Assembly (NCBI GenBank): GCA_016202645.1
Contig: JACQOF010000097.1
Location: 16,955 to 80,954 of the forward strand
Origin: a bacterium
Lineage (GTDB): Bacteria; Lindowbacteria; 2-12-FULL-62-27
Length of the DNA: 64,000 nucleotides
Reading direction: 5' to 3'
Numbering within the stretch: position 1 is the stretch's first letter; the number at the start of each line of letters is the position of its first letter. A program made the translations under genes and the position numbers. The notes beneath the pieces are model-generated. The model saw only the letters and a program-made list of their open reading frames with translations, searched no databases and was not told the DNA's origin. Positions 14,675-55,751 of the stretch are shown in pieces.

Positions 14675-15898
14675 TTGGACTTGAAACCCGCCGCGGCGCT
14701 CTCCTTTCCGGATCGGATTCTGCTTGCTCTGCTTAAATTCTCCTTCAGACTGCTCCAATCCGTGGTGGATATTCGTGTCGGAATGCTCACCGCGGAGAGA
14801 CTGGGGCATCTGGTCCTCGATGCGGAAGACTGGATGCGCAGCTCGATCAACTCATCCCGGGGCATTCCTCAAATCTCCCTGTTTTTTTGCGGGCGGTCCT
14901 GCAACCCGCGGCTTCTGGGCATGCTGAAACGCCAAATGTCCATCTGGAGCGGCCTCCCGGCGCTCCGGCTGTACGAATTGTTGACGACAAGGGTTCTTCC
15001 CGCGGCTTCACGGATTGAATTCAAAAAACATCAGGAAGCCGACTGGGAAATGTGGACACATGGACGGCCGAATCTGACGTTTACGACTGCCGAAAAGAGG
15101 GAAGGGGAAGCGTTATTAAGATCCATGGGGATTCCGGAGGGATCACCGTTTGTCTGCATCCACACCCGGGATTCCGCCTATTTGGAGGATGGCAGATCGG
15201 TCCGGTCGAGAATGGGGGATTGGCGGTACCATGACTACCGCGATGGCCAAATCGAAAATTATCTGCCGGCGGCCGAGTGGCTCGCCGATCAGGGCTTTTT
15301 TGTGCTGAGAATGGGCGCGGTGGTCGAGCGCCCGATTCCGAGTCGTCATCCACGGGTGATCGACTATGCCTCCCGCCATCGGACGGATTTAGGCGACGTC
15401 TATCTCATGGCGAATTGCCGTTTTTATATCGGCAGCACCTCCGGCCTTCTGGTCCTGGCCATGGCCTTCAACATTCCCTACGTCATGATCAATACGGTGC
15501 CGTTGATGTTAAAAGCCTCCAGCGCCCGGGATCTGTTCATTCTCAAAAAATACCGAAGCATCCGGGAGAACCGCATCCTGACCTTTCCGGAAATTTTTTC
15601 CAGCGGCGGTCACCGCTGGATGACGACGGCAAGCTTCGAGCGCGCGGAGATTGAACTCGTCGAAAATTCAGCGGAGGAAATTCTTGCCGTCACGCGGGAA
15701 ATGAAGGCCCGCCTGGACGGGACTTGGGTATCGACTCCGGAGGATGAGCTCTTACAAGCCCGGTTTGACGCCCTTTTCCCGCCGGCCAGTCCCTATGCCG
15801 GACATCCTTCAAGAATTGGCGCCGAATTTCTGCGCCGGAATGCGGACCTCCTGGAGGCCGGAATACCGGCGGGTGCGCGCAAGGCGGTTGCCGGATGA
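14675..15898 (+). CDS. TIGR04372-like putative glycosyltransferase (paralog 1)
   Basis: Strong similarity to 37975-39168, e.g. WRYHDYRDGQIENYLPAAEWLADQGFFVLRMGAV..HPRVIDYASRHRTDLGDVYLMANCRFYIGSTSGL. The family name is from memory. Start uncertain: TTG at 14675 just after the upstream stop, or ATG near 14779. The ORF-track start at 14396 overlaps the upstream gene. Confidence 0.6.
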   Translation: MDLKPAAALSFPDRILLALLKFSFRLLQSVVDIRVGMLTAERLGHLVLDAEDWMRSSINSSRGIPQISLFFCGRSCNPRLLGMLKRQMSIWSGLPALRLYELLTTRVLPAASRIEFKKHQEADWEMWTHGRPNLTFTTAEKREGEALLRSMGIPEGSPFVCIHTRDSAYLEDGRSVRSRMGDWRYHDYRDGQIENYLPAAEWLADQGFFVLRMGAVVERPIPSRHPRVIDYASRHRTDLGDVYLMANCRFYIGSTSGLLVLAMAFNIPYVMINTVPLMLKASSARDLFILKKYRSIRENRILTFPEIFSSGGHRWMTTASFERAEIELVENSAEEILAVTREMKARLDGTWVSTPEDELLQARFDALFPPASPYAGHPSRIGAEFLRRNADLLEAGIPAGARKAVAG

Positions 15899-17070
15899 AC
15901 TGCAGTCTTTGCGGACGGCCCGAACTGGATGCGATCCACGTTCCGCATCCATTTTTCCGGCACATGGATTTTGAGATGATACGACCCTCGGCCTGCTTGT
16001 ACCGCTGCCGTCTCTGCCGTCTTCTTCAGACGGAGCACGGAAAAAATGAGGCGGCGGCGTTGGATCGGATGTACCGGGGAAAACGATATGCCCGAAGCCG
16101 TCAGACTGAACAGACCGTTCAAGTCCCGGAATATCGCGGGCCCGTCACGCGATCGTTTTTGCAGGCGGACATTCTTGCCAATGGGATGGACCGGGAGCCG
16201 GCGTCGATCCTGGACATCGGCTGTTTTGACGGCCGGCTTTTGAATGAGTTTGTATCCAGGTTTCCCTCGGCCCAACTTCATGGGTTTGACGTCAACGAAC
16301 CGGTCCGGCGGCTTTTCCCTTCCGGAAAAAGATTTCAATTCTGGACAGGGTCTTTGGAAAACGTAACCGGGGTGTTTGATCTGGTGTGCCTGTCTCACTC
16401 CCTGATCTGTATTCCGGACATCGGAACCGCTCTTCGACGGATTTTGGATCTCCTGGCGCCCTCCGGCCGCGTTTTCATCCAATTGCCGGATATTTCGAAA
16501 AATCCCTACGCGATTCTGTTTGCCGATCAATACACCTATTTTACGAATACCATCCTGTCCAACGCACTTTCCGTGGCTGGATTTGATTGGTCGCCCATTC
16601 TGTCTTCATGGTTTCCGCGGGAAATCCTTGGGATCGCCCGGCCGCGCGGGGCGGCCCTTCCGGCGCCTGTCTGCGAAGATACCACCATATACGGGACACT
16701 TGCCTATCTGAATTCCGCCGCCGATCAAATGAAACGTGTCTCCGATGCCCATCGGACAGGGATGTCCAGTCCCCGAAGCTCCAGACTCAGGAAATCCCAG
16801 GACGGGATTTCCTTCAATCTGCGAAGGGGGCGGACGGGCGTTCTGGGAACGACCCTGAATGCGGCGTGGGCGGATCAGCTGTGTCCGACGATGCAATTTT
16901 TTGTCGACGAAAATCCGGCGAAGATTGGCCGAAGATTTCGCGGGAAGCCTGTGATCCATCCGGAATCGCTGAAACCGGACGACCAAATCCTTCTGCCGTA
17001 CGGTCTCAGCGGAGCGGCCTTGCGGGAGAAATTTGAAAAGTCATATTCCGGAAATTTCGTGAACTTTTAA
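15895..17070 (+). CDS. SAM-dependent methyltransferase with N-terminal Cys-rich (zinc-ribbon-like) region and C-terminal Rossmann-like domain; carries an in-frame repeat insertion
   Basis: N-terminal CSLCG...CRLCRL. Motif I ILDIGCFDGRLL. C-terminal GVLGTTLNAAW...FVDENPAKIGRRFRGKPVIHPESL. ATGA overlap with the upstream gene. The repeat at 16753-16831 is translated as RTGMSSPRSSRLRKSQDGISFNLRRG. Confidence 0.7.
   Translation: MNCSLCGRPELDAIHVPHPFFRHMDFEMIRPSACLYRCRLCRLLQTEHGKNEAAALDRMYRGKRYARSRQTEQTVQVPEYRGPVTRSFLQADILANGMDREPASILDIGCFDGRLLNEFVSRFPSAQLHGFDVNEPVRRLFPSGKRFQFWTGSLENVTGVFDLVCLSHSLICIPDIGTALRRILDLLAPSGRVFIQLPDISKNPYAILFADQYTYFTNTILSNALSVAGFDWSPILSSWFPREILGIARPRGAALPAPVCEDTTIYGTLAYLNSAADQMKRVSDAHRTGMSSPRSSRLRKSQDGISFNLRRGRTGVLGTTLNAAWADQLCPTMQFFVDENPAKIGRRFRGKPVIHPESLKPDDQILLPYGLSGAALREKFEKSYSGNFVNF
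16753..16831 (+). repeat. ~79-nt palindromic element, copy 1 (inside a CDS)
   Basis: 59 nt (16754-16812) are identical to the reverse complement of 55030-55088. Similarity extends to ~79 nt with 2 mismatches. Internal 9-bp stem GGAAATCCC-aggac-GGGATTTCC and 5-bp stem GGACA-ggga-TGTCC. Confidence 0.9.
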
Positions 17071-35338: not shown

Positions 35339-35374
35339 GATAGAACCCCGCTCCTCATTATTCCGCCGCCAGGT

Positions 35375-35461
35375 CGTCATTCCCGCGAAAGCGGGAATCC
35401 AGATTATCGCAGTGCGGACTGGATTCCCGCTTTCGCGGGAATGACGGAGAGGGCTGAATAG
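35375..35461. repeat. Double-hairpin palindromic intergenic repeat, copy C
   Basis: 87 nt, 2 mismatches relative to copy A (834-920). Lies in the divergent intergenic region. Confidence 0.9.
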
Positions 35462-35488
35462 CAACCGACATTTAACATTTGAAGTCAT

Positions 35489-43083: not shown

Positions 43084-43541
43084 TTTTTCCTTACCGTTTA
43101 TTTGGCGGCGTGCTGTGTCCCTTCATTGAATTTGGCATCAAGGGTGTAAGCGGGGAGTGGGTCAAAGCTGACGCCTATGTCGATTCCGGAGCTTTCCTTT
43201 CAGTTTTTTCAATCAGGGATGCAGAAAGGTTGGGTCTTCGTCTCACTGCGGGTGATCTGATTTACGCAAGTGGTGTAGACGGCAAATCAATCCCGGTCTA
43301 CGTCCACCGCATGCCGGTGCAGATCGGGCCACACAAATTTCAGGCGCACATGGGTTTTTCTGAAAAACTCGGTTCCGGATTCAATCTGCTGGGCCGCGAA
43401 GATTTTTTCTCGCGCTTCGACGTTACATTCAGCGACACGAGTCGGCGGCTGATGTTTCAACCGATCAAAGGAAAACCGAAGGCGGGCGGCAAAAGTATTG
43501 TGGCGCTGATGAAGGCACGTCGAAAGAGAAAAGCGTATTGA
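43041..43541 (+). CDS. Retropepsin-like aspartic protease
   Basis: Catalytic AYVDSGAFLSVFS (D-S-G-A). ~160 aa. Overlaps the upstream small gene by 43 nt if the ATG at 43041 is used. Confidence 0.6.
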   Translation: MSNPAPAGPRLRPVVFPYRLFGGVLCPFIEFGIKGVSGEWVKADAYVDSGAFLSVFSIRDAERLGLRLTAGDLIYASGVDGKSIPVYVHRMPVQIGPHKFQAHMGFSEKLGSGFNLLGREDFFSRFDVTFSDTSRRLMFQPIKGKPKAGGKSIVALMKARRKRKAY

Positions 43542-43907
43542 AGTCGCCGCCCCTGGGTACGAGATTCGGGGACTGGTCCACTCGAATTGTGGGGAGGCTG
43601 GTAAACATCACCTGGGTGGTGGAGGAAGGGCCTCCCGCTCCATCGCGAGGACAGGGATGTCCGAGTGTCGGCCGCTCAGGGATGGCCGCTTTTGTCGCGG
43701 GTGCGTCCGCCTTTGGCGGACGCCGGGAGCGCGAGCGCTCCCGCGCCCGCGACCCATCCCACGCGCCGCGAGAAGCGCCGACGGAGTGCGTCTATGACGG
43801 TCATAGACGCACGGGTTCAATCGCATTCACGCGCTGTGGCCTGTTGATTTTCTTTTGATGCATTTCTCTCCTTTTGAAATTATCCGGAACAAATTAGAAT
43901 AACCCAT

Positions 43908-44747
43908 ATGCTGATTTGGATATTACTCGCGATTGCCTTCGGTATGATTGTTGTTGAACGCATCTATCCCGCGATGGATCTGCCCCGTGTCCGTGCGTGG
44001 TGGTTACGGGTTATTCTTGTGAATCTGATTCAACTTGGCATCATCGTTCTGGCCGGACACACGTGGGAACTTTGGTTCTCGTCCGTGTCTCTGTTGCGGC
44101 TCCAAGACCATTTCGGCGATATTGCTTCCGGATTTATTGCCTACTTTATTTCAACCTTCGTCTATTATTGGTGGCACCGCATCCGTCATGAATCCCAATG
44201 GTTCTGGCTCCTTTGCCACCAGCTCCACCATTCGCCGCGGCGGATCGAGGTTCTTACTTCTTTTTACAAACATCCGGTCGAAATCACGCTGAATTCTCTC
44301 TTGAGCGCTGCGATCGTATATCTGTTGCTTGGATGCTCCATCACAGCCGGAGCCATCTACACGTTTTTAACCGCCATCGCCGAATATTTCTATCACTGGA
44401 ACATCCATACTCCCCAATGGATCGGGTACATTCTCCAGAGGCCGGATTCGCACCGGATTCATCATCAGTACCGGCACCATACCCAAAATTTTGCTGATCT
44501 GCCGGTTTGGGACATGATGTTCAAAACGTTCAAAAATCCGGCCAGATTCGATGCCACCTGCGGATTCGACGACTGGCGGGAAGACAGATTTGAGGACGTT
44601 TTGGCGTTCCGGGACATGCATGCCGAGGGCATTGAAAACATCGCACCGCTTCAGTTTCTGCCAACCTGCATCGGCTGCGGCAAACGCTGGGCATGCTATG
44701 AATCAAAGCGCCGCGATCCGGATGTGAAGGACACCAACGTCCCTTGA
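43908..44747 (+). CDS. Fatty acid hydroxylase / sterol desaturase family membrane di-iron oxygenase
   Basis: Histidine boxes WWHRIRH, HQLHHSP and HRIHHQYRHH. Several transmembrane segments. Confidence 0.8.
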   Translation: MLIWILLAIAFGMIVVERIYPAMDLPRVRAWWLRVILVNLIQLGIIVLAGHTWELWFSSVSLLRLQDHFGDIASGFIAYFISTFVYYWWHRIRHESQWFWLLCHQLHHSPRRIEVLTSFYKHPVEITLNSLLSAAIVYLLLGCSITAGAIYTFLTAIAEYFYHWNIHTPQWIGYILQRPDSHRIHHQYRHHTQNFADLPVWDMMFKTFKNPARFDATCGFDDWREDRFEDVLAFRDMHAEGIENIAPLQFLPTCIGCGKRWACYESKRRDPDVKDTNVP

Positions 44748-51904: not shown

Positions 51905-51937
51905 TCCTGCAAGACTTCAACCGCCCGAATCAATTTT

Positions 51938-52001
51938 CGTCACCCCCGCGAATGCGGGGGTCCAGAGTGCGGTTCTGGATTCCCGCTTTCGCGGGAATGA
52001 C
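51938..52001. repeat. Double-hairpin palindromic intergenic repeat, copy D (short spacer, compensatory variant)
   Basis: cgtcACCCCCGCgaatGCGGGGGTccag...ctggATTCCCGCtttcGCGGGAATgac, between the ftsK start and the pnp stop. Confidence 0.8.
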
Positions 52002-52009
52002 AATCAATG

Positions 52010-54328
52010 TCAGACGCTCGATCCCACCGTCGAATCCGAGCCGCCGCCCTGCCGATAGCCGCCGCTGTCTTCGCGGCGCGGGCCGCGGTCGCCCCGGTCA
52101 AATCTTGGCGGGCGGTCGCCCCGGTCCCGCGGGCCGCGGTCGTTTCGGTCGCCCCGGTCGAATCGGCGGGGCGGCCGGTCGTCCCGGTCTCGCGGGCCGC
52201 CGCTGGTGCGGGGTTTGACCGGGAGCGGGGGTTTGCCCTCCATCTCCCGGATGGCCGCGACGCGAGAGAGCCGGAGCCGCCCGAGATGATCGATCTCGAT
52301 CAGCTTGACGGGCGTGACGTCGCCTTCCTTGAGCACATCTTCGACGCGCTCGGTCCGTTCCTCCGAGATTTCGGAAATATGGAGGAGTCCCTCGTGTCCG
52401 GGCATGATCTCGCAGAACGCGCCGAAGTCCACCACGCGGACGACCTTGCCCTGGTAGACGCGGCCGAGGTCCGGTTCGGCGATCATCATGTGGATTTTTT
52501 CCTTCGCGACGAGCGCGCTCTTCTCGTCCTCCGAGTAAATCCTCACGGAGCCGTCGTCCTCGATGTCGATCTTGACGCCGGTCTCCTCGACGATCGCCCG
52601 GATGTTCTTGCCGCCCGGGCCGATGATCGCGCCGATCTTGTCCTTCGGAACCATGAGCAGGAACACCCGCGGAGCGTAGGGCGAAATGTCCGCGCGCGGC
52701 GCCGCGATAGCGGCTTCCATCTTGCCGATAATGTGCAGGCGCGCGGCCTGGGCTTTGGCCAGGGCCTTGCGCATGAGGTCCACGGAAATCCCGCCGATCT
52801 TGATGTCCATCTGAATGGCGGTCACGCCCTGCCGGGTCCCGGCGACTTTGAAGTCCATGTCGCCGAGATGGTCCTCGTCACCGAGAATGTCCGTGAGAAT
52901 CGCCACGCGGTCGCCCTCCTTGACGAGGCCCATCGCGACGCCCGCGACGTGCGAAGCGATCGGAACGCCCGCGTCCATCATCGCCAGCGATCCGCCGCAG
53001 ACGGATGCCATGGAGGAAGAACCGTTCGATTCAAGAATGTCGGATACGAGTCGAATGGCGTACGGGAAGGATTCCTCGGTCGGGATGAGGGACCGGAGCG
53101 CCTTTTCGGCGAGCATGCCATGCCCGATTTCCCGGCGGCCCTGCCCGCCGAAGCGGCCGACTTCGCCGACTGAAAATGGGGGAAAATTATAGTGAAGGTA
53201 AAACCGGCGTGACTTGTCGCCCTCGATGTCGTCCGTCCGCTGGACATCGTCTCCCGTGCCGAGGGTCACGACGGCGAGGGCCTGTGTTTCGCCCCGCGTG
53301 AAAACGGCGGATCCGTGGGTCCTGGGAAGAAATCCGAGTTTGATGTCGATCGGCCGGACTTCGTCAAGTCCGCGGCCGTCGTTGCGTTTGCCCTTTTCAA
53401 GAATGTTCGACCGGACGATCTTGGCTTTGATCTCCTCGATCTCGCCCTTGGCCTCCATCTCGATCTTCTCGCGCTCCAGCCCGAGTTTCCCGGCGGCTTG
53501 GCCGATCGCGTCGTCCTCGATCCTGTGAATTTCCGCGTAGCGTTCCATCTTGGTCGGGATGACGAGGGCCTTGGACAGGCCGGCGGCCGCGAGCGCGTTC
53601 AGCGTCTCGGCGAGTTTCGGAGTTTTGGCGGGCGGCGAGAAAAGCCGTTTGGCCTTGCCGACTTTCCGCGCCAGTTCCTCCTGGACCTTGCAGATTTTTT
53701 GGATTTCCGACTGGGCGATCTGCAGGCCCTCGATCACAACGTCCTCGGAAACCTGCCGGGCGTTGCCTTCGACCATCGCAATGTCGGTGGCGGTGCCGGC
53801 GACCACCAGTTCCAAATCGGCGTTATCGACTTCCTCCCGGGACGGGTTGACTTTGAACTGGCCGTTGAGCCGGATCACGCGCACGGCGCCGACGGCCTTG
53901 GTGAAGGGAATGTCCGAGATCAGGAGGGACGTGGCCGCGCCGACGATCGAGAGAACGTCGGGCAGGGCGGTCAGATCCGCGGAAATGACGAATGACGCCG
54001 CCTGGACTTCGTTGTGGTACCCTTCCGGAAAGAGCGGCCGGAGAGGCCGGTCGGTCATGCGGGCCGAGAGGGTTTCGCGGTCGCCGGGGCGGGTTTCGCG
54101 TTTGATGAATCCACCGGGGATTTTTCCGGCCGAATAGGCTTTTTCCCGGTATTCGATGGTCAAGGGCAGAAAGTCGACGCCCGCTTCGGCTTTTTCCTCG
54201 GCGCACGCGGTGGAGAGCACCATCGTGTCGCCGTATTTCACGAGGACGGAACCGTTCGCCTGTTTGGCGAGTAGTCCTTGAGTGAGGGTCAGCGGTCGCC
54301 CGCCGACGTCAACGGATACTTCGTTCAT
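52010..54328 (-). CDS. pnp: Polyribonucleotide nucleotidyltransferase (PNPase) with Arg/Asp/Gly/Pro-rich C-terminal tail
   Basis: Two RNase PH domains, KH and S1 (GKVVRVVDFGAFCEI). ~65-aa tail PRDRDDRPPRRFDRGDRNDRGPRDRGDRPPRFDRGDRGPRRED. Confidence 0.95.
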   Translation of the reverse strand: MNEVSVDVGGRPLTLTQGLLAKQANGSVLVKYGDTMVLSTACAEEKAEAGVDFLPLTIEYREKAYSAGKIPGGFIKRETRPGDRETLSARMTDRPLRPLFPEGYHNEVQAASFVISADLTALPDVLSIVGAATSLLISDIPFTKAVGAVRVIRLNGQFKVNPSREEVDNADLELVVAGTATDIAMVEGNARQVSEDVVIEGLQIAQSEIQKICKVQEELARKVGKAKRLFSPPAKTPKLAETLNALAAAGLSKALVIPTKMERYAEIHRIEDDAIGQAAGKLGLEREKIEMEAKGEIEEIKAKIVRSNILEKGKRNDGRGLDEVRPIDIKLGFLPRTHGSAVFTRGETQALAVVTLGTGDDVQRTDDIEGDKSRRFYLHYNFPPFSVGEVGRFGGQGRREIGHGMLAEKALRSLIPTEESFPYAIRLVSDILESNGSSSMASVCGGSLAMMDAGVPIASHVAGVAMGLVKEGDRVAILTDILGDEDHLGDMDFKVAGTRQGVTAIQMDIKIGGISVDLMRKALAKAQAARLHIIGKMEAAIAAPRADISPYAPRVFLLMVPKDKIGAIIGPGGKNIRAIVEETGVKIDIEDDGSVRIYSEDEKSALVAKEKIHMMIAEPDLGRVYQGKVVRVVDFGAFCEIMPGHEGLLHISEISEERTERVEDVLKEGDVTPVKLIEIDHLGRLRLSRVAAIREMEGKPPLPVKPRTSGGPRDRDDRPPRRFDRGDRNDRGPRDRGDRPPRFDRGDRGPRREDSGGYRQGGGSDSTVGSSV

Positions 54329-54516: not shown

Positions 54517-54780
54517 TTACTTGCGCAATCCGAGCCGCTTGACCACGCCGCGGTACCGGCCCAGCTCGCTGGTTCGGAGATGGCTGAGAAGCTGGCGCCG
54601 TCGGCCGACCATGATCAAAAGTCCGCGGCGGGACCCGTGATCTTTGGGATGGGTTTTCAGGTGGTCTGTGAGAGTGCGAATGCGCTCCGTGAGGACCGCC
54701 ACCTGAACATCCGCGGATCCGGTATCCTGGTCATGAGTCCGGTATTCATCAATGATTTTTCGCTTCATTTCCTTTTCCAT
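54517..54780 (-). CDS. rpsO: 30S ribosomal protein S15
   Basis: 87 aa; GSADVQVAVLTERIRTLTDHLKTHPKDHGSRRGLLIMVGRRRQLLSHL. Confidence 0.95.
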   Translation of the reverse strand: MEKEMKRKIIDEYRTHDQDTGSADVQVAVLTERIRTLTDHLKTHPKDHGSRRGLLIMVGRRRQLLSHLRTSELGRYRGVVKRLGLRK

Positions 54781-55751
54781 TTCAATATCCTTTTCGCCCG
54801 GGCAACGTCGGTTTGGATCGCCGCTTTCAACCGGGCTAAATTCGAAAATTTCCGTTCCGGCCTCAAAAACCGGACCACATCAACCGCCACCACCGCCGCT
54901 GGCCGGATTGAAACGCGTTTCCCGTCCAGCACGTGTACTTCCAAAATCGCCCGGCGCGATGCCCGCAAAGTCGGCGCGACGCCGAAATTCATGACGGCGG
55001 GGCGGCACCGGCCCCCTTCGCAGATGGAGGGAAATCCCGTCCTGGGATTTCCTGAGTCTGGAGCTTCGGGGACTGGACATCCCTGTCCGCCCGCGGTTTT
55101 CAGCCAACCGGCGTAGACGCCGAATTTCGGCTGAAGCTCGTTCGCTACATGGATGTTGACGGTCCGCGCGCCGGTTTTACCGCCAAGTCCCGCGCCGGTT
55201 TCCACCCGGCCGACCAGTTCCAAGGGCCGACCGAGAAGTTTCGCCGCGGATTCAACCCGTCCGGCGGATACCATGCGTCGAACTCGCGTACTCTGGATCG
55301 CAGTCCCTCCGGACAGAACCGGCTTGACCGCAAGAGCAAACGCCCCGCGGTCTCGAAGAAGCCGGTCCAGATCCCGGACCGTGCCGGCGCGCCGATGGCC
55401 GAACCGGAATCCCCGGCCGACCACGACGCCCTTTACATTCCAGTGTCGAAAGAGCACCCGCTCCACAAATTGAGCGGGGGACAGTCTAGCCAGTGATTTC
55501 GTAAAATGCAAGGGATATATCCGGCGGATGCCCAAGCTGCGGATGGAATCGCAACGCTGGGAAAACGTCTGAACAAGCGGGACGGGATGTCCCGGCGCCA
55601 GGATCCGGCTGGGATGGATGGAAAAGGTCAGCGCGACAGGCAGAGCGCCGAGCGCGCTCGCGCGCCGGAGCGTTGTCCGCAAAATGGCCTGATGGCCGAG
55701 GTGGACGCCGTCGAAAATTCCGATCGCAACGACAGCCGCTGGTTTAGACAA
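54765..55751 (-). CDS. ribF: Bifunctional riboflavin kinase / FMN adenylyltransferase, carrying an in-frame repeat insertion
   Basis: IGIFDGVHLGHQ, GRGFRFG, GVYAGW...VMNFGVAPTL...LEVHVLD...VRFLRPERKF. The segment GQGCPVPEAPDSGNPRTGFPSICEG is encoded by repeat copy 2. Confidence 0.9.
   Translation of the reverse strand: MSKPAAVVAIGIFDGVHLGHQAILRTTLRRASALGALPVALTFSIHPSRILAPGHPVPLVQTFSQRCDSIRSLGIRRIYPLHFTKSLARLSPAQFVERVLFRHWNVKGVVVGRGFRFGHRRAGTVRDLDRLLRDRGAFALAVKPVLSGGTAIQSTRVRRMVSAGRVESAAKLLGRPLELVGRVETGAGLGGKTGARTVNIHVANELQPKFGVYAGWLKTAGGQGCPVPEAPDSGNPRTGFPSICEGGRCRPAVMNFGVAPTLRASRRAILEVHVLDGKRVSIRPAAVVAVDVVRFLRPERKFSNLARLKAAIQTDVARAKRILKWKRK
55011..55089 (-). repeat. ~79-nt palindromic element, copy 2 (inside ribF)
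   Basis: 55030-55088 is the exact reverse complement of 16754-16812. The flanks add ~20 nt of similarity with 2 mismatches. Confidence 0.9.

Follow-up and report, generated by a model that had tools for sequence, protein, structure and literature searches.

A 78-nt hairpin-forming repeat, probably mobile, lies in frame within ribF and unrelated genes of an uncultured bacterial lineage

The gene for the bifunctional riboflavin kinase/flavin mononucleotide (FMN) adenylyltransferase RibF in the 64,000-nt stretch of bacterial DNA analysed here (contig JACQOF010000097.1; hereafter the window) contains a segment of 78 nt, at 55011..55088 on the minus strand, that is probably one copy of a small interspersed repeat. 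This repeat appears to be lineage-restricted, hairpin-forming and non-autonomous, and to have spread recently in the genome of one uncultured bacterium. It is present in at least four host genes, is absent from the homologues of its hosts, adds 26 codons to each of two of them and stands in two different reading frames. According to structural models the inserts are located in loops, and to the host the element would be neutral and most likely without function.

A repeat search with ungapped extension across the window yielded a pair of 79-nt blocks that agree at 77 of 79 positions (97%), one at 16753-16831 (+) and the other at 55011-55089 (-), with mismatches at 16813 (T/C) and 16816 (A/C). 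Within these blocks, a 59-nt core (GGACAGGGATGTCCAGTCCCCGAAGCTCCAGACTCAGGAAATCCCAGGACGGGATTTCC) has two occurrences in the window, at 16754-16812 (+) and 55030-55088 (-), that are 100% identical, which bears out the original prediction that part of the ribF segment is matched exactly inside an unrelated gene 38 kb away; none of 100 dinucleotide-preserving shuffles gave such a match. In a pairwise alignment of the two copies identity is lost abruptly at either edge, and blastn-short together with an nhmmer profile detected no third full copy in the window. Copy A comprises 78 nt at 16753..16830 (+) and corresponds to codons 287-312 of a methyltransferase gene (peptide RTGMSSPRSSRLRKSQDGISFNLRRG), with the shared block continuing to 16831. 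Copy B, the ribF segment, corresponds to codons 222-247 (peptide GQGCPVPEAPDSGNPRTGFPSICEGG), and the block common to both copies continues for one more base, up to 55089. The insert has a length of 78 nt (26 codons), and the 79-nt block includes one base of junction ambiguity. Both copies are in the sense orientation relative to their host gene and are read in different frames (GQGCP... and RTGMSS...), which means that the host genes share DNA and not protein. GC skew shows no evident switch between these two opposite-strand copies. The near identity of the copies, while the host proteins are only 41-58% identical to their nearest homologues, points to recent copying.

The ribF gene (54765..55751, -) encodes a protein of 328 aa (Pfam FAD_syn, 1.1e-37; Flavokinase, 3.6e-26) and lies in a nusA-infB-truB-ribF-rpsO-pnp row. 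The best solved relative in a PDB search is the FAD synthetase of Corynebacterium ammoniagenes (CaFADS, 1e-35), and the nearest named relatives come from Omnitrophica-type metagenome-assembled genomes (MAGs), at ~40% identity. The GVYA...N.G..PT stretch of the riboflavin kinase domain spans 22-33 residues (mode 25) across 112 RibF homologues versus 51 here, an excess of 26 residues, which is the upper end of the ~22-26 extra residues first estimated. In an alignment with the 10 closest relatives (45-58% identity) and five more distant ones, the extra block at codons 222-247 is unique to the RibF of the window, and the in-frame insertion is lacking from all 112 homologues. A syntenic relative, whose RibF is 58% identical, provides an approximate empty site (AAA ATG CCC GCG GGA CGG CGG CCG) for comparison with the junction in the window (AAA ACC GCG GGC, 78 nt, CGG TGC CGC CCC).

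On either side of the insertion the reading frame continues with canonical motifs, as had been proposed, and all invariant residues of the family are kept, among them the GxFDGxHxGH motif, Thr and Asn of PTAN and the catalytic Glu. An AlphaFold2 model of RibF, built from a 70-sequence alignment, has a mean predicted local distance difference test score (pLDDT) of 89.6 and a predicted TM-score (pTM) of 0.87, and superposes on solved FAD synthetases with a TM-score of ~0.8, so that the predicted fold is intact. Residues 222-245 are the sole segment with a pLDDT <50 and are modelled as a coil between strands 211-218 and 249-257, in agreement with the idea that the insert forms a surface loop. The insertion aligns with CaFADS residues ~229-246, which form loop L3c, an extra loop reported only for the Corynebacterium and Mycobacterium enzymes, where it stabilises a dimer of trimers (PMC5428420). 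By analogy, the insertion would occupy a backbone position that is known to accept extra length, and judging from the model the RibF enzyme most likely still works.

The alignment with L3c also brings up an alternative in which the segment is an ancestral or lineage-specific RibF loop, vertically inherited and comparable to L3c itself. The CaFADS loop is longer at the same site, and its PTEAPVSGN resembles the PVPEAPDSGN of the insert, a likeness that 40 of 5000 shuffles equalled when scored against the loop alone. However, against the whole of CaFADS 181 of 5000 shuffles did as well, which is not significant. Furthermore, the segment is missing from the 10 closest RibF relatives and from the 102 others, and identical DNA encodes part of three unrelated proteins, in one case in a different frame. 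An ancestral loop is effectively refuted by these homologues without the segment and by the copies in unrelated genes, and we give it almost no credence. The peptide likeness in question, between RibF residues 226-235 and L3c residues ~231-240 (PDB 2x0k/5fo1), was considered as a meaningful resemblance (PEAPDSGN/TEAPVSGN) and set aside as probably due to chance.

Some further features of RibF deserve mention. In the RibF of the window and in its 10 closest relatives, the P-T-A-N motif is replaced by R-T-(V/I)-N (RTVN/RTIN). The protein scores below all NCBIfam equivalog cut-offs (best 240.7 versus 295), to which both the insert and the divergence of the lineage may contribute. Inserts of this kind lower family-model scores and thereby affect annotation, the insert being an unproven candidate for the cause in the case of RibF. 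In addition, the last 16 nt of ribF (54765-54780) are shared with the start of rpsO (54517..54780, -), which suggests translational coupling, and polarity exerted by the hairpins of the element would then reach rpsO and pnp too.

The host of copy A is a gene at 15895..17070 (+) for a class I S-adenosylmethionine (SAM)-dependent methyltransferase of 391 aa, which has three domains including a Cys4 N-terminal domain (Pfam Methyltransf_23/12/25/11). The best Foldseek matches of its model are MtmC, KijD1 and TcaB9, which are nucleoside diphosphate (NDP)-sugar C-3-methyltransferases (E ~1e-16), and the gene sits in a large sugar/nonulosonic-acid cluster with DegT aminotransferases, NeuB, cytidylyltransferases, radical-SAM enzymes and sulfotransferases. 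The segment equivalent to the one carrying the insert measures 53-61 residues in 94 of 94 measurable homologues compared to 82 here, again an excess of ~26, and a 14-sequence alignment has a clean 26-column gap opposite the insert. Because CGGAC recurs at 16831-16835, the register of this insertion is ambiguous by up to 5 nt. The AlphaFold2 model (pLDDT 93.6, pTM 0.91) places the insert in a low-confidence coil between helix 264-288 and strand 314-317; outside the inserts, pLDDT exceeds 90 in the models of both hosts.

Further copies were sought by an exhaustive phmmer search of 1.84 billion representative proteins with the 33-residue RibF-frame peptide, which detects only sense copies in the ribF frame. 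Two further proteins contain the element. The first, MBI4179050.1, is a 532-aa PAS-HisKA-HATPase_c-REC hybrid histidine kinase in which an insert of ~26 residues (...TEGGGQGCPIPEAPDSGNPRTGFPSIREGGEQL...) splits the HATPase_c domain between profile positions ~34 and 35. The second, MBI4179311.1, is a partial LpxK of 112 aa that ends, at a contig end, 22 residues into the element (...GGGQGCPVPGAPDSGNPRTGFPSI), which fits an assembly break at a repeat. Compared with the ribF copy, each of these two has 1-2 changed residues (V>I, C>R, E>G). Their accessions are 261 apart and carry the same label, which indicates that both proteins derive from one NCBI MAG, and the window, whose own proteins are likewise NCBI-sourced, is likely from this MAG as well; neither lpxK nor such a kinase gene lies in the window. 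The element is thus known from at least four unrelated genes, each of which carries it in frame and in the sense orientation; two of these copies are known as DNA and two as protein. This number is a lower bound. A word-indexed protein search with a concatenated five-frame peptide returned only the LpxK fragment and missed even the two proteins of the window, which reflects its poor recall.

These additional copies also bear on the concern that the repeat is an artefact, either of assembly chimerism or of technical sequence introduced with a metagenome assembly. The source is indeed metagenomic and the LpxK copy lies at a contig end. A contig break, however, is what a real repeat produces, and no plasmid or phage match was obtained. 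Chimerism would not yield four in-frame, slightly diverged copies in four genes, where ribF and the methyltransferase gene are each longer by precisely 26 codons and the kinase copy covers ~26 residues. Moreover, the copies are 1-3% divergent, and three of the four are bordered at either end by unique coding sequence, which leaves an artefactual origin hardly believable.

At the nucleotide level the family appears to be narrow. A scan of 185,579 representative genomes for the hairpin core GGAAATCCC-N5-GGGATTTCC, followed by blastn of the full element, returned no full-length copy. The 48 loci that match the core were rejected as relatives and attributed to chance, since only the 23-28 nt of the hairpin are shared; there was no Rickettsia hit among these 48 loci in the 185,579 species genomes. 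JGI metagenomes gave no match to ACTCAGGAAATCCC-N5-GGGATTTCC or GGACAGGGATGTCCAGTCCCC, and no related element was found in IMG/VR or in plasmid and phage collections. The family is therefore probably confined to this lineage.

An explanation for the positions of the genic copies lies in the properties of the unit. Such copies would survive only if the insertion left the frame unshifted, was free of stop codons and fell into a permissive loop. The frame is never shifted since the length of the unit is a multiple of three. Stop codons are absent from five of its six frames, including all three sense frames, for which the chance at the base composition of the element is estimated at ~0.05 for 26 codons, and Gly, Pro, Ser and Arg abound in the flexible peptides that it encodes. 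The element is unusually compact, at precisely 26 codons with five of its six frames open. In ribF, the unit would be transcribed and translated together with the gene to give a disordered 26-residue loop between two β-strands of the riboflavin-kinase module. The three insertion sites that can be judged (RibF, methyltransferase and kinase) are all loops according to models and profiles, which argues that the insert peptide is made and that the sites have been filtered by selection. The element would also mark permissive sites in well-studied folds, namely L3c of RibF, the linker from helix to strand in sugar C-methyltransferases and a HATPase_c loop.

The same observation speaks against the notion that the element is present in the DNA but not in the protein, either through translational bypassing, as in T4 gene 60 and the mitochondrial 'byp' elements, or through removal from the mRNA. 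Identical codons do occur 78 nt apart at the borders (GGC...GGC in ribF and CGG...CGG in the methyltransferase gene), with a stable hairpin right after the first. Matching codons, however, follow trivially from the short repeats at the junctions described below, the putative take-off codon is not followed by a stop, and the whole of the frame is open. In addition, permissive loop sites would be needless if the peptide were never made. We regard bypassing or excision as highly improbable, and the preferred reading is that of a mobile repeat read through as part of its host proteins.

The element itself consists of two hairpins, as found by pattern search and by RNA and DNA folding. The first, at its 5' end (nt 2-15), is formed by GGACA-GGGA-TGTCC with a 5-bp stem (16754..16767, +; copy B, 55075-55088, -; sense RNA ACAGGGAUGU). 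The second is an imperfect hairpin of 63 nt (nt 17-79) at 16769..16831 (+), or 55011-55073 (-) in copy B, which has an outer stem GTCCCC/GGGGGC and symmetric GAA/GAA internal loops, and whose end coincides exactly with the 3' edge of the repeat. The apex is formed by a perfect stem-loop of 9-10 bp, GGAAATCCC-AGGAC-GGGATTTCC, with a 5-nt loop at 16790-16812 (copy B, 55030-55052). Both stems named in the original prediction, the 9-bp stem and GGACA/TGTCC, are thus present. RNA folding gives -36.8 kcal/mol for copy A (z = -3.5) and -35.1 kcal/mol for copy B (z = -2.4), and DNA folding of the element gives z = -2.4, in a window with a G+C content of 58%; the ends of the fold fall together with those of the repeat. 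The element has no terminal inverted repeats (TIRs), as its ends (CGGACAGGG... and ...GAAGGGGGC) are not complementary and the internal stem GTCCCC/GGGGGC begins 16 nt in from the 5' end. No promoter- or terminator-like sites were found inside copy A or B by a promoter/terminator scan, and no Rfam family matched the element at gathering thresholds, with only noise in E-value mode.

The hairpins raise the question whether the element acts at the RNA level, being kept or spread because sense GGA-loop hairpins bind a regulator of the CsrA/RsmA type, by which it would control its host genes or titrate the regulator. The consensus for CsrA obtained by SELEX is RUACARGGAUGU (PMC7652899). The 5' hairpin in the sense RNA, GGACAGGGAUGUCC, agrees with it at 11 of 12 positions, with ACA, GGA and GU present, and its GGA can occupy an ARGGAU loop closed by AC/GU, so that it forms a putative CsrA site. 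The second hairpin has an AGGAC loop, GGA is found in loops on the sense strand only and all four copies are in the sense orientation. All five known differences among the copies lie outside the two hairpins, and matches to the CsrA motif number three in the window compared to 0.26 expected. However, the consensus match was noticed post hoc and only two copies are unbiased with respect to orientation. CsrA sites are normally found in the 5' untranslated region or at the Shine-Dalgarno sequence and not 660 nt into a coding region, and a six-frame translation of the window contains no csrA-like open reading frame (ORF) or motif. Furthermore, the number of GGA triplets is ordinary, with 5% of 79-nt windows having ≥5 and the antisense strand equalling the sense strand; GGA enrichment of the whole element was accordingly rejected as not significant. 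Weak matches to families of the Rsm clan in Rfam (PrrB_RsmZ, 10 bits, E = 4.4; rsmX, 13.9 bits) have E-values of ~3-4 and are far under the gathering thresholds of 44 and 56 bits. An RNA-level role is therefore quite unlikely.

This lead extends to an intergenic region at 43541-43908, which is densely structured and GGA-rich, has strong palindromes at 43703-43724 and 43778-43805 and yields the rsmX match (E = 3.3) as its sole, sub-threshold Rfam match. An exact copy of the 14-nt 5' hairpin (GGACAGGGATGTCC) lies here at 43649..43662 (+) and is the only other occurrence of the CsrA motif in the window, whereas ~5e-4 chance occurrences are expected for a given 14-mer in 128 kb. Seven nucleotides downstream there is a terminator-like hairpin with GGA in its loop, followed by CTTTTG (43669-43688), and upstream, at 43564-43575, stands TTCGGGGACTGG, the reverse complement of nt 15-26 of the element. 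The locus at 43649-43662 could be related to the element, in partial or rearranged form, or could be a GGA hairpin of its own, and the region could possibly encode a small GGA-hairpin RNA. The most elaborate version, in which the element is a portable sense RNA module that wires genes of essential and envelope functions (ribF, lpxK, the sugar methyltransferase gene and the sensor kinase gene) into a CsrA-type regulon with the locus at 43.56-43.69 kb as a sponge small RNA, is in our estimation very unlikely. Should the CsrA lead prove correct, the repeat would constitute a regulatory module that is mobile.

The manner in which the element moved must be read from its junctions. At each window copy, a short sequence in one flank is repeated directly at the opposite end of the element, at a distance of exactly 78 nt. 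In ribF this is GGGC in the flank and GGGGGC at the 3' end of the element, and in the methyltransferase gene it is CGGACAGGG at the 5' end of the element and CGGACGGGC in the 3' flank, which are identical at seven of nine positions (CGGAC(A/G)GG). These repeats of 4-5 nt, from two DNA junctions, are unlike between the two copies and may reflect either target preference or microhomology. Gly-Gly(-Gly) codons, that is, G-rich DNA like the 3' end of the element, precede the kinase and LpxK copies.

The junctions are also evidence for a templated repair patch, in which microhomology-primed synthesis from an existing copy would have placed the 78-nt unit in double-strand breaks or stalled forks, with no need for a dedicated enzyme. 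The direct repeats 78 nt apart and the Gly-Gly(-Gly) codons fit such a process, as do the lack of TIRs and of a transposase in the window. Only two DNA junctions can be compared, however, and their repeats are short and different. Matches of 4-5 nt are common in G+C-rich coding DNA, and the target preference of a site-specific HUH enzyme would give the same pattern. We hold a repair patch to be unlikely as the origin of the repeat. Among the possible routes, a single-strand HUH/Y1 route of the IS200/IS605 or RAYT type, or a copy templated by microhomology, would be more plausible than a DDE transposase, because TIRs and a regular target duplication are missing and hairpins lie beside both ends; this is a guess. 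The element provides a tangible example for the question of how repeats that lack TIRs or target-site duplications (TSDs) move.

Several points weigh against the interpretation of the segment as a mobile repeat. Mobility is an inference, as neither transposition machinery nor TIRs or TSDs nor presence/absence polymorphism was seen. More specifically, a Pfam scan detected no transposase among the 40 ORFs of the window, nor was a Y1/HUH transposase or a parent insertion sequence (IS) with matching ends seen there. No convincing, consistent TSD accompanies the absence of TIRs at the window copies, where the insertion boundaries are fixed only to within a few nt. The narrowness of the family, with no relatives in the searched collections, means that mobility gains no corroboration from distribution, and only four copies are known, two of them as DNA. 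That all four are in the sense orientation is not obviously expected of a purely selfish element, although two of the four came from a frame-specific search that could detect sense copies only. Finally, translation of the insert and retained enzyme activity are predictions.

The remainder of the window contains a number of other features. Its first part (1-40000) is a very large glycan-modification island that encodes glycosyltransferases, two NAD-epimerases/dehydratases, NeuB, cytidylyltransferases and two DegT aminotransferases, together with four radical-SAM enzymes (two B12-binding and two SPASM), an MptE-like protein, several SAM methyltransferases, two sulfotransferases and an ATP sulfurylase. 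Imperfect inverted repeats within this island (13159-13227/31462-31530 and 15212-15327/38507-38622) are probably paralogous gene segments, the first pair falling in two genes for B12-binding radical-SAM enzymes. The polynucleotide phosphorylase (PNPase) gene pnp (52010-54328, -) encodes a long low-complexity tail past the S1 domain, in which approximately the last 70 residues are rich in Arg, Asp, Gly and Pro (PRDRDDRPPRRFDRGDRNDRGPRDRGDRPPRFDRGDRGPRRED...), a feature unusual for bacterial PNPases.

A second repeat family, unrelated to the 78-nt element, consists of CGTC-ATTCCCGC-GAAA-GCGGGAAT-CCA stem-loops arranged as head-to-head dimers. These are located at 829-924, 2150-2240, 35370-35465 and 51932-52005, all of which are intergenic, for example between ftsK and pnp. 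The CGTC tag, the 8-bp stem starting with AT, the 4-nt loop and the CCA tail fit the 'CGTC-1' type of repetitive extragenic palindromes (REPs), which includes Neisseria dRS3 and Rickettsia RPE-6 (PMC3733652). In contrast to the 78-nt element, which resides in genes, this family is strictly intergenic in the window.

In-frame palindromic repeats within genes have been documented for Rickettsia palindromic elements (RPEs), the betaproteobacterial repeat element (BRE), some copies of BOX and ERIC, and tagged REPs (PMC3184786; PMC10969869; PMC3733652). RPEs share with the present element that they are dispersed hairpin repeats inserted in frame in unrelated housekeeping genes, read through and absent from orthologues (Ogata et al. 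2000, via PMC10969869, PMC3184786); the insertion sites are predicted to be compatible with the host fold and no autonomous partner is known. In contrast, RPEs are given a length of ~105-150 nt (PMC3184786) versus 78 nt here, and dozens of RPE copies stand against four known here, where two reading frames are used and the host is not Rickettsia. RPE sequences of Rickettsia conorii, moreover, end with CGTC (PMC3733652), whereas the present element has no CGTC end tag. The proposed resemblance to RPEs consequently holds as an analogy, the element being in frame, dispersed, palindromic and predicted to occupy loop sites, but does not extend to membership, given its 78 nt, its non-Rickettsia host and its two frames. 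By this comparison it would be sound to call the element RPE-like in behaviour but no member of the RPE-1 to RPE-10 series, from which size, host, reading frames and the lack of sequence relatives set it apart; RPE homology was judged from the genome scan and not by direct alignment with an RPE consensus.

The BRE (~90 bp) is similar in size and is reported to have in-frame inserts in about nine protein genes (Hot et al. 2011, via PMC3184786). It differs in belonging to another lineage, in being mainly intergenic and in having some copies reported as transcribed, a comparison made by description and not by sequence. REPs with GTAG or CGTC tags likewise include palindromes inside the coding regions of known proteins, where the added residues are tolerated, and CGTC REPs lack a dedicated transposase (PMC3733652). 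However, these REPs are single stem-loops of 20-40 bp with a GTAG or CGTC tag at one end (PMC3733652). The present element, in contrast, has 78 nt, two hairpins and untagged ends (CGGAC.../...GGGGGC), with GACG only inside the apical loop.

MITEs (miniature transposable elements with inverted repeats) such as Nezha, Correia, ERIC and RUP are similarly small, non-autonomous and structured, and some form in-frame fusions. The element differs in its lack of TIRs; no TSD of fixed length was recognised at its two window copies, and no parent IS with matching ends was found in the window. IS200/IS605-derived palindrome-associated transposable elements (PATEs) and REP/RAYT systems have no TIRs, produce no TSD and carry hairpins near both ends. 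The element resembles them in its lack of TIRs and in its hairpins, no consistent TSD was found for it, and its flank and end share GGGC; it differs in that no Y1/HUH transposase was seen in the window, and four copies are too few to define a fixed target tetranucleotide. Such repeats also interrupt assemblies within genes, as the LpxK fragment illustrates. Taken together, the element is a clear further example of a phenomenon known from Rickettsia and a few other bacteria and involves no new principle, but it suggests that the reading through of selfish DNA as protein extends to an uncultured lineage that is free-living and G+C-rich.

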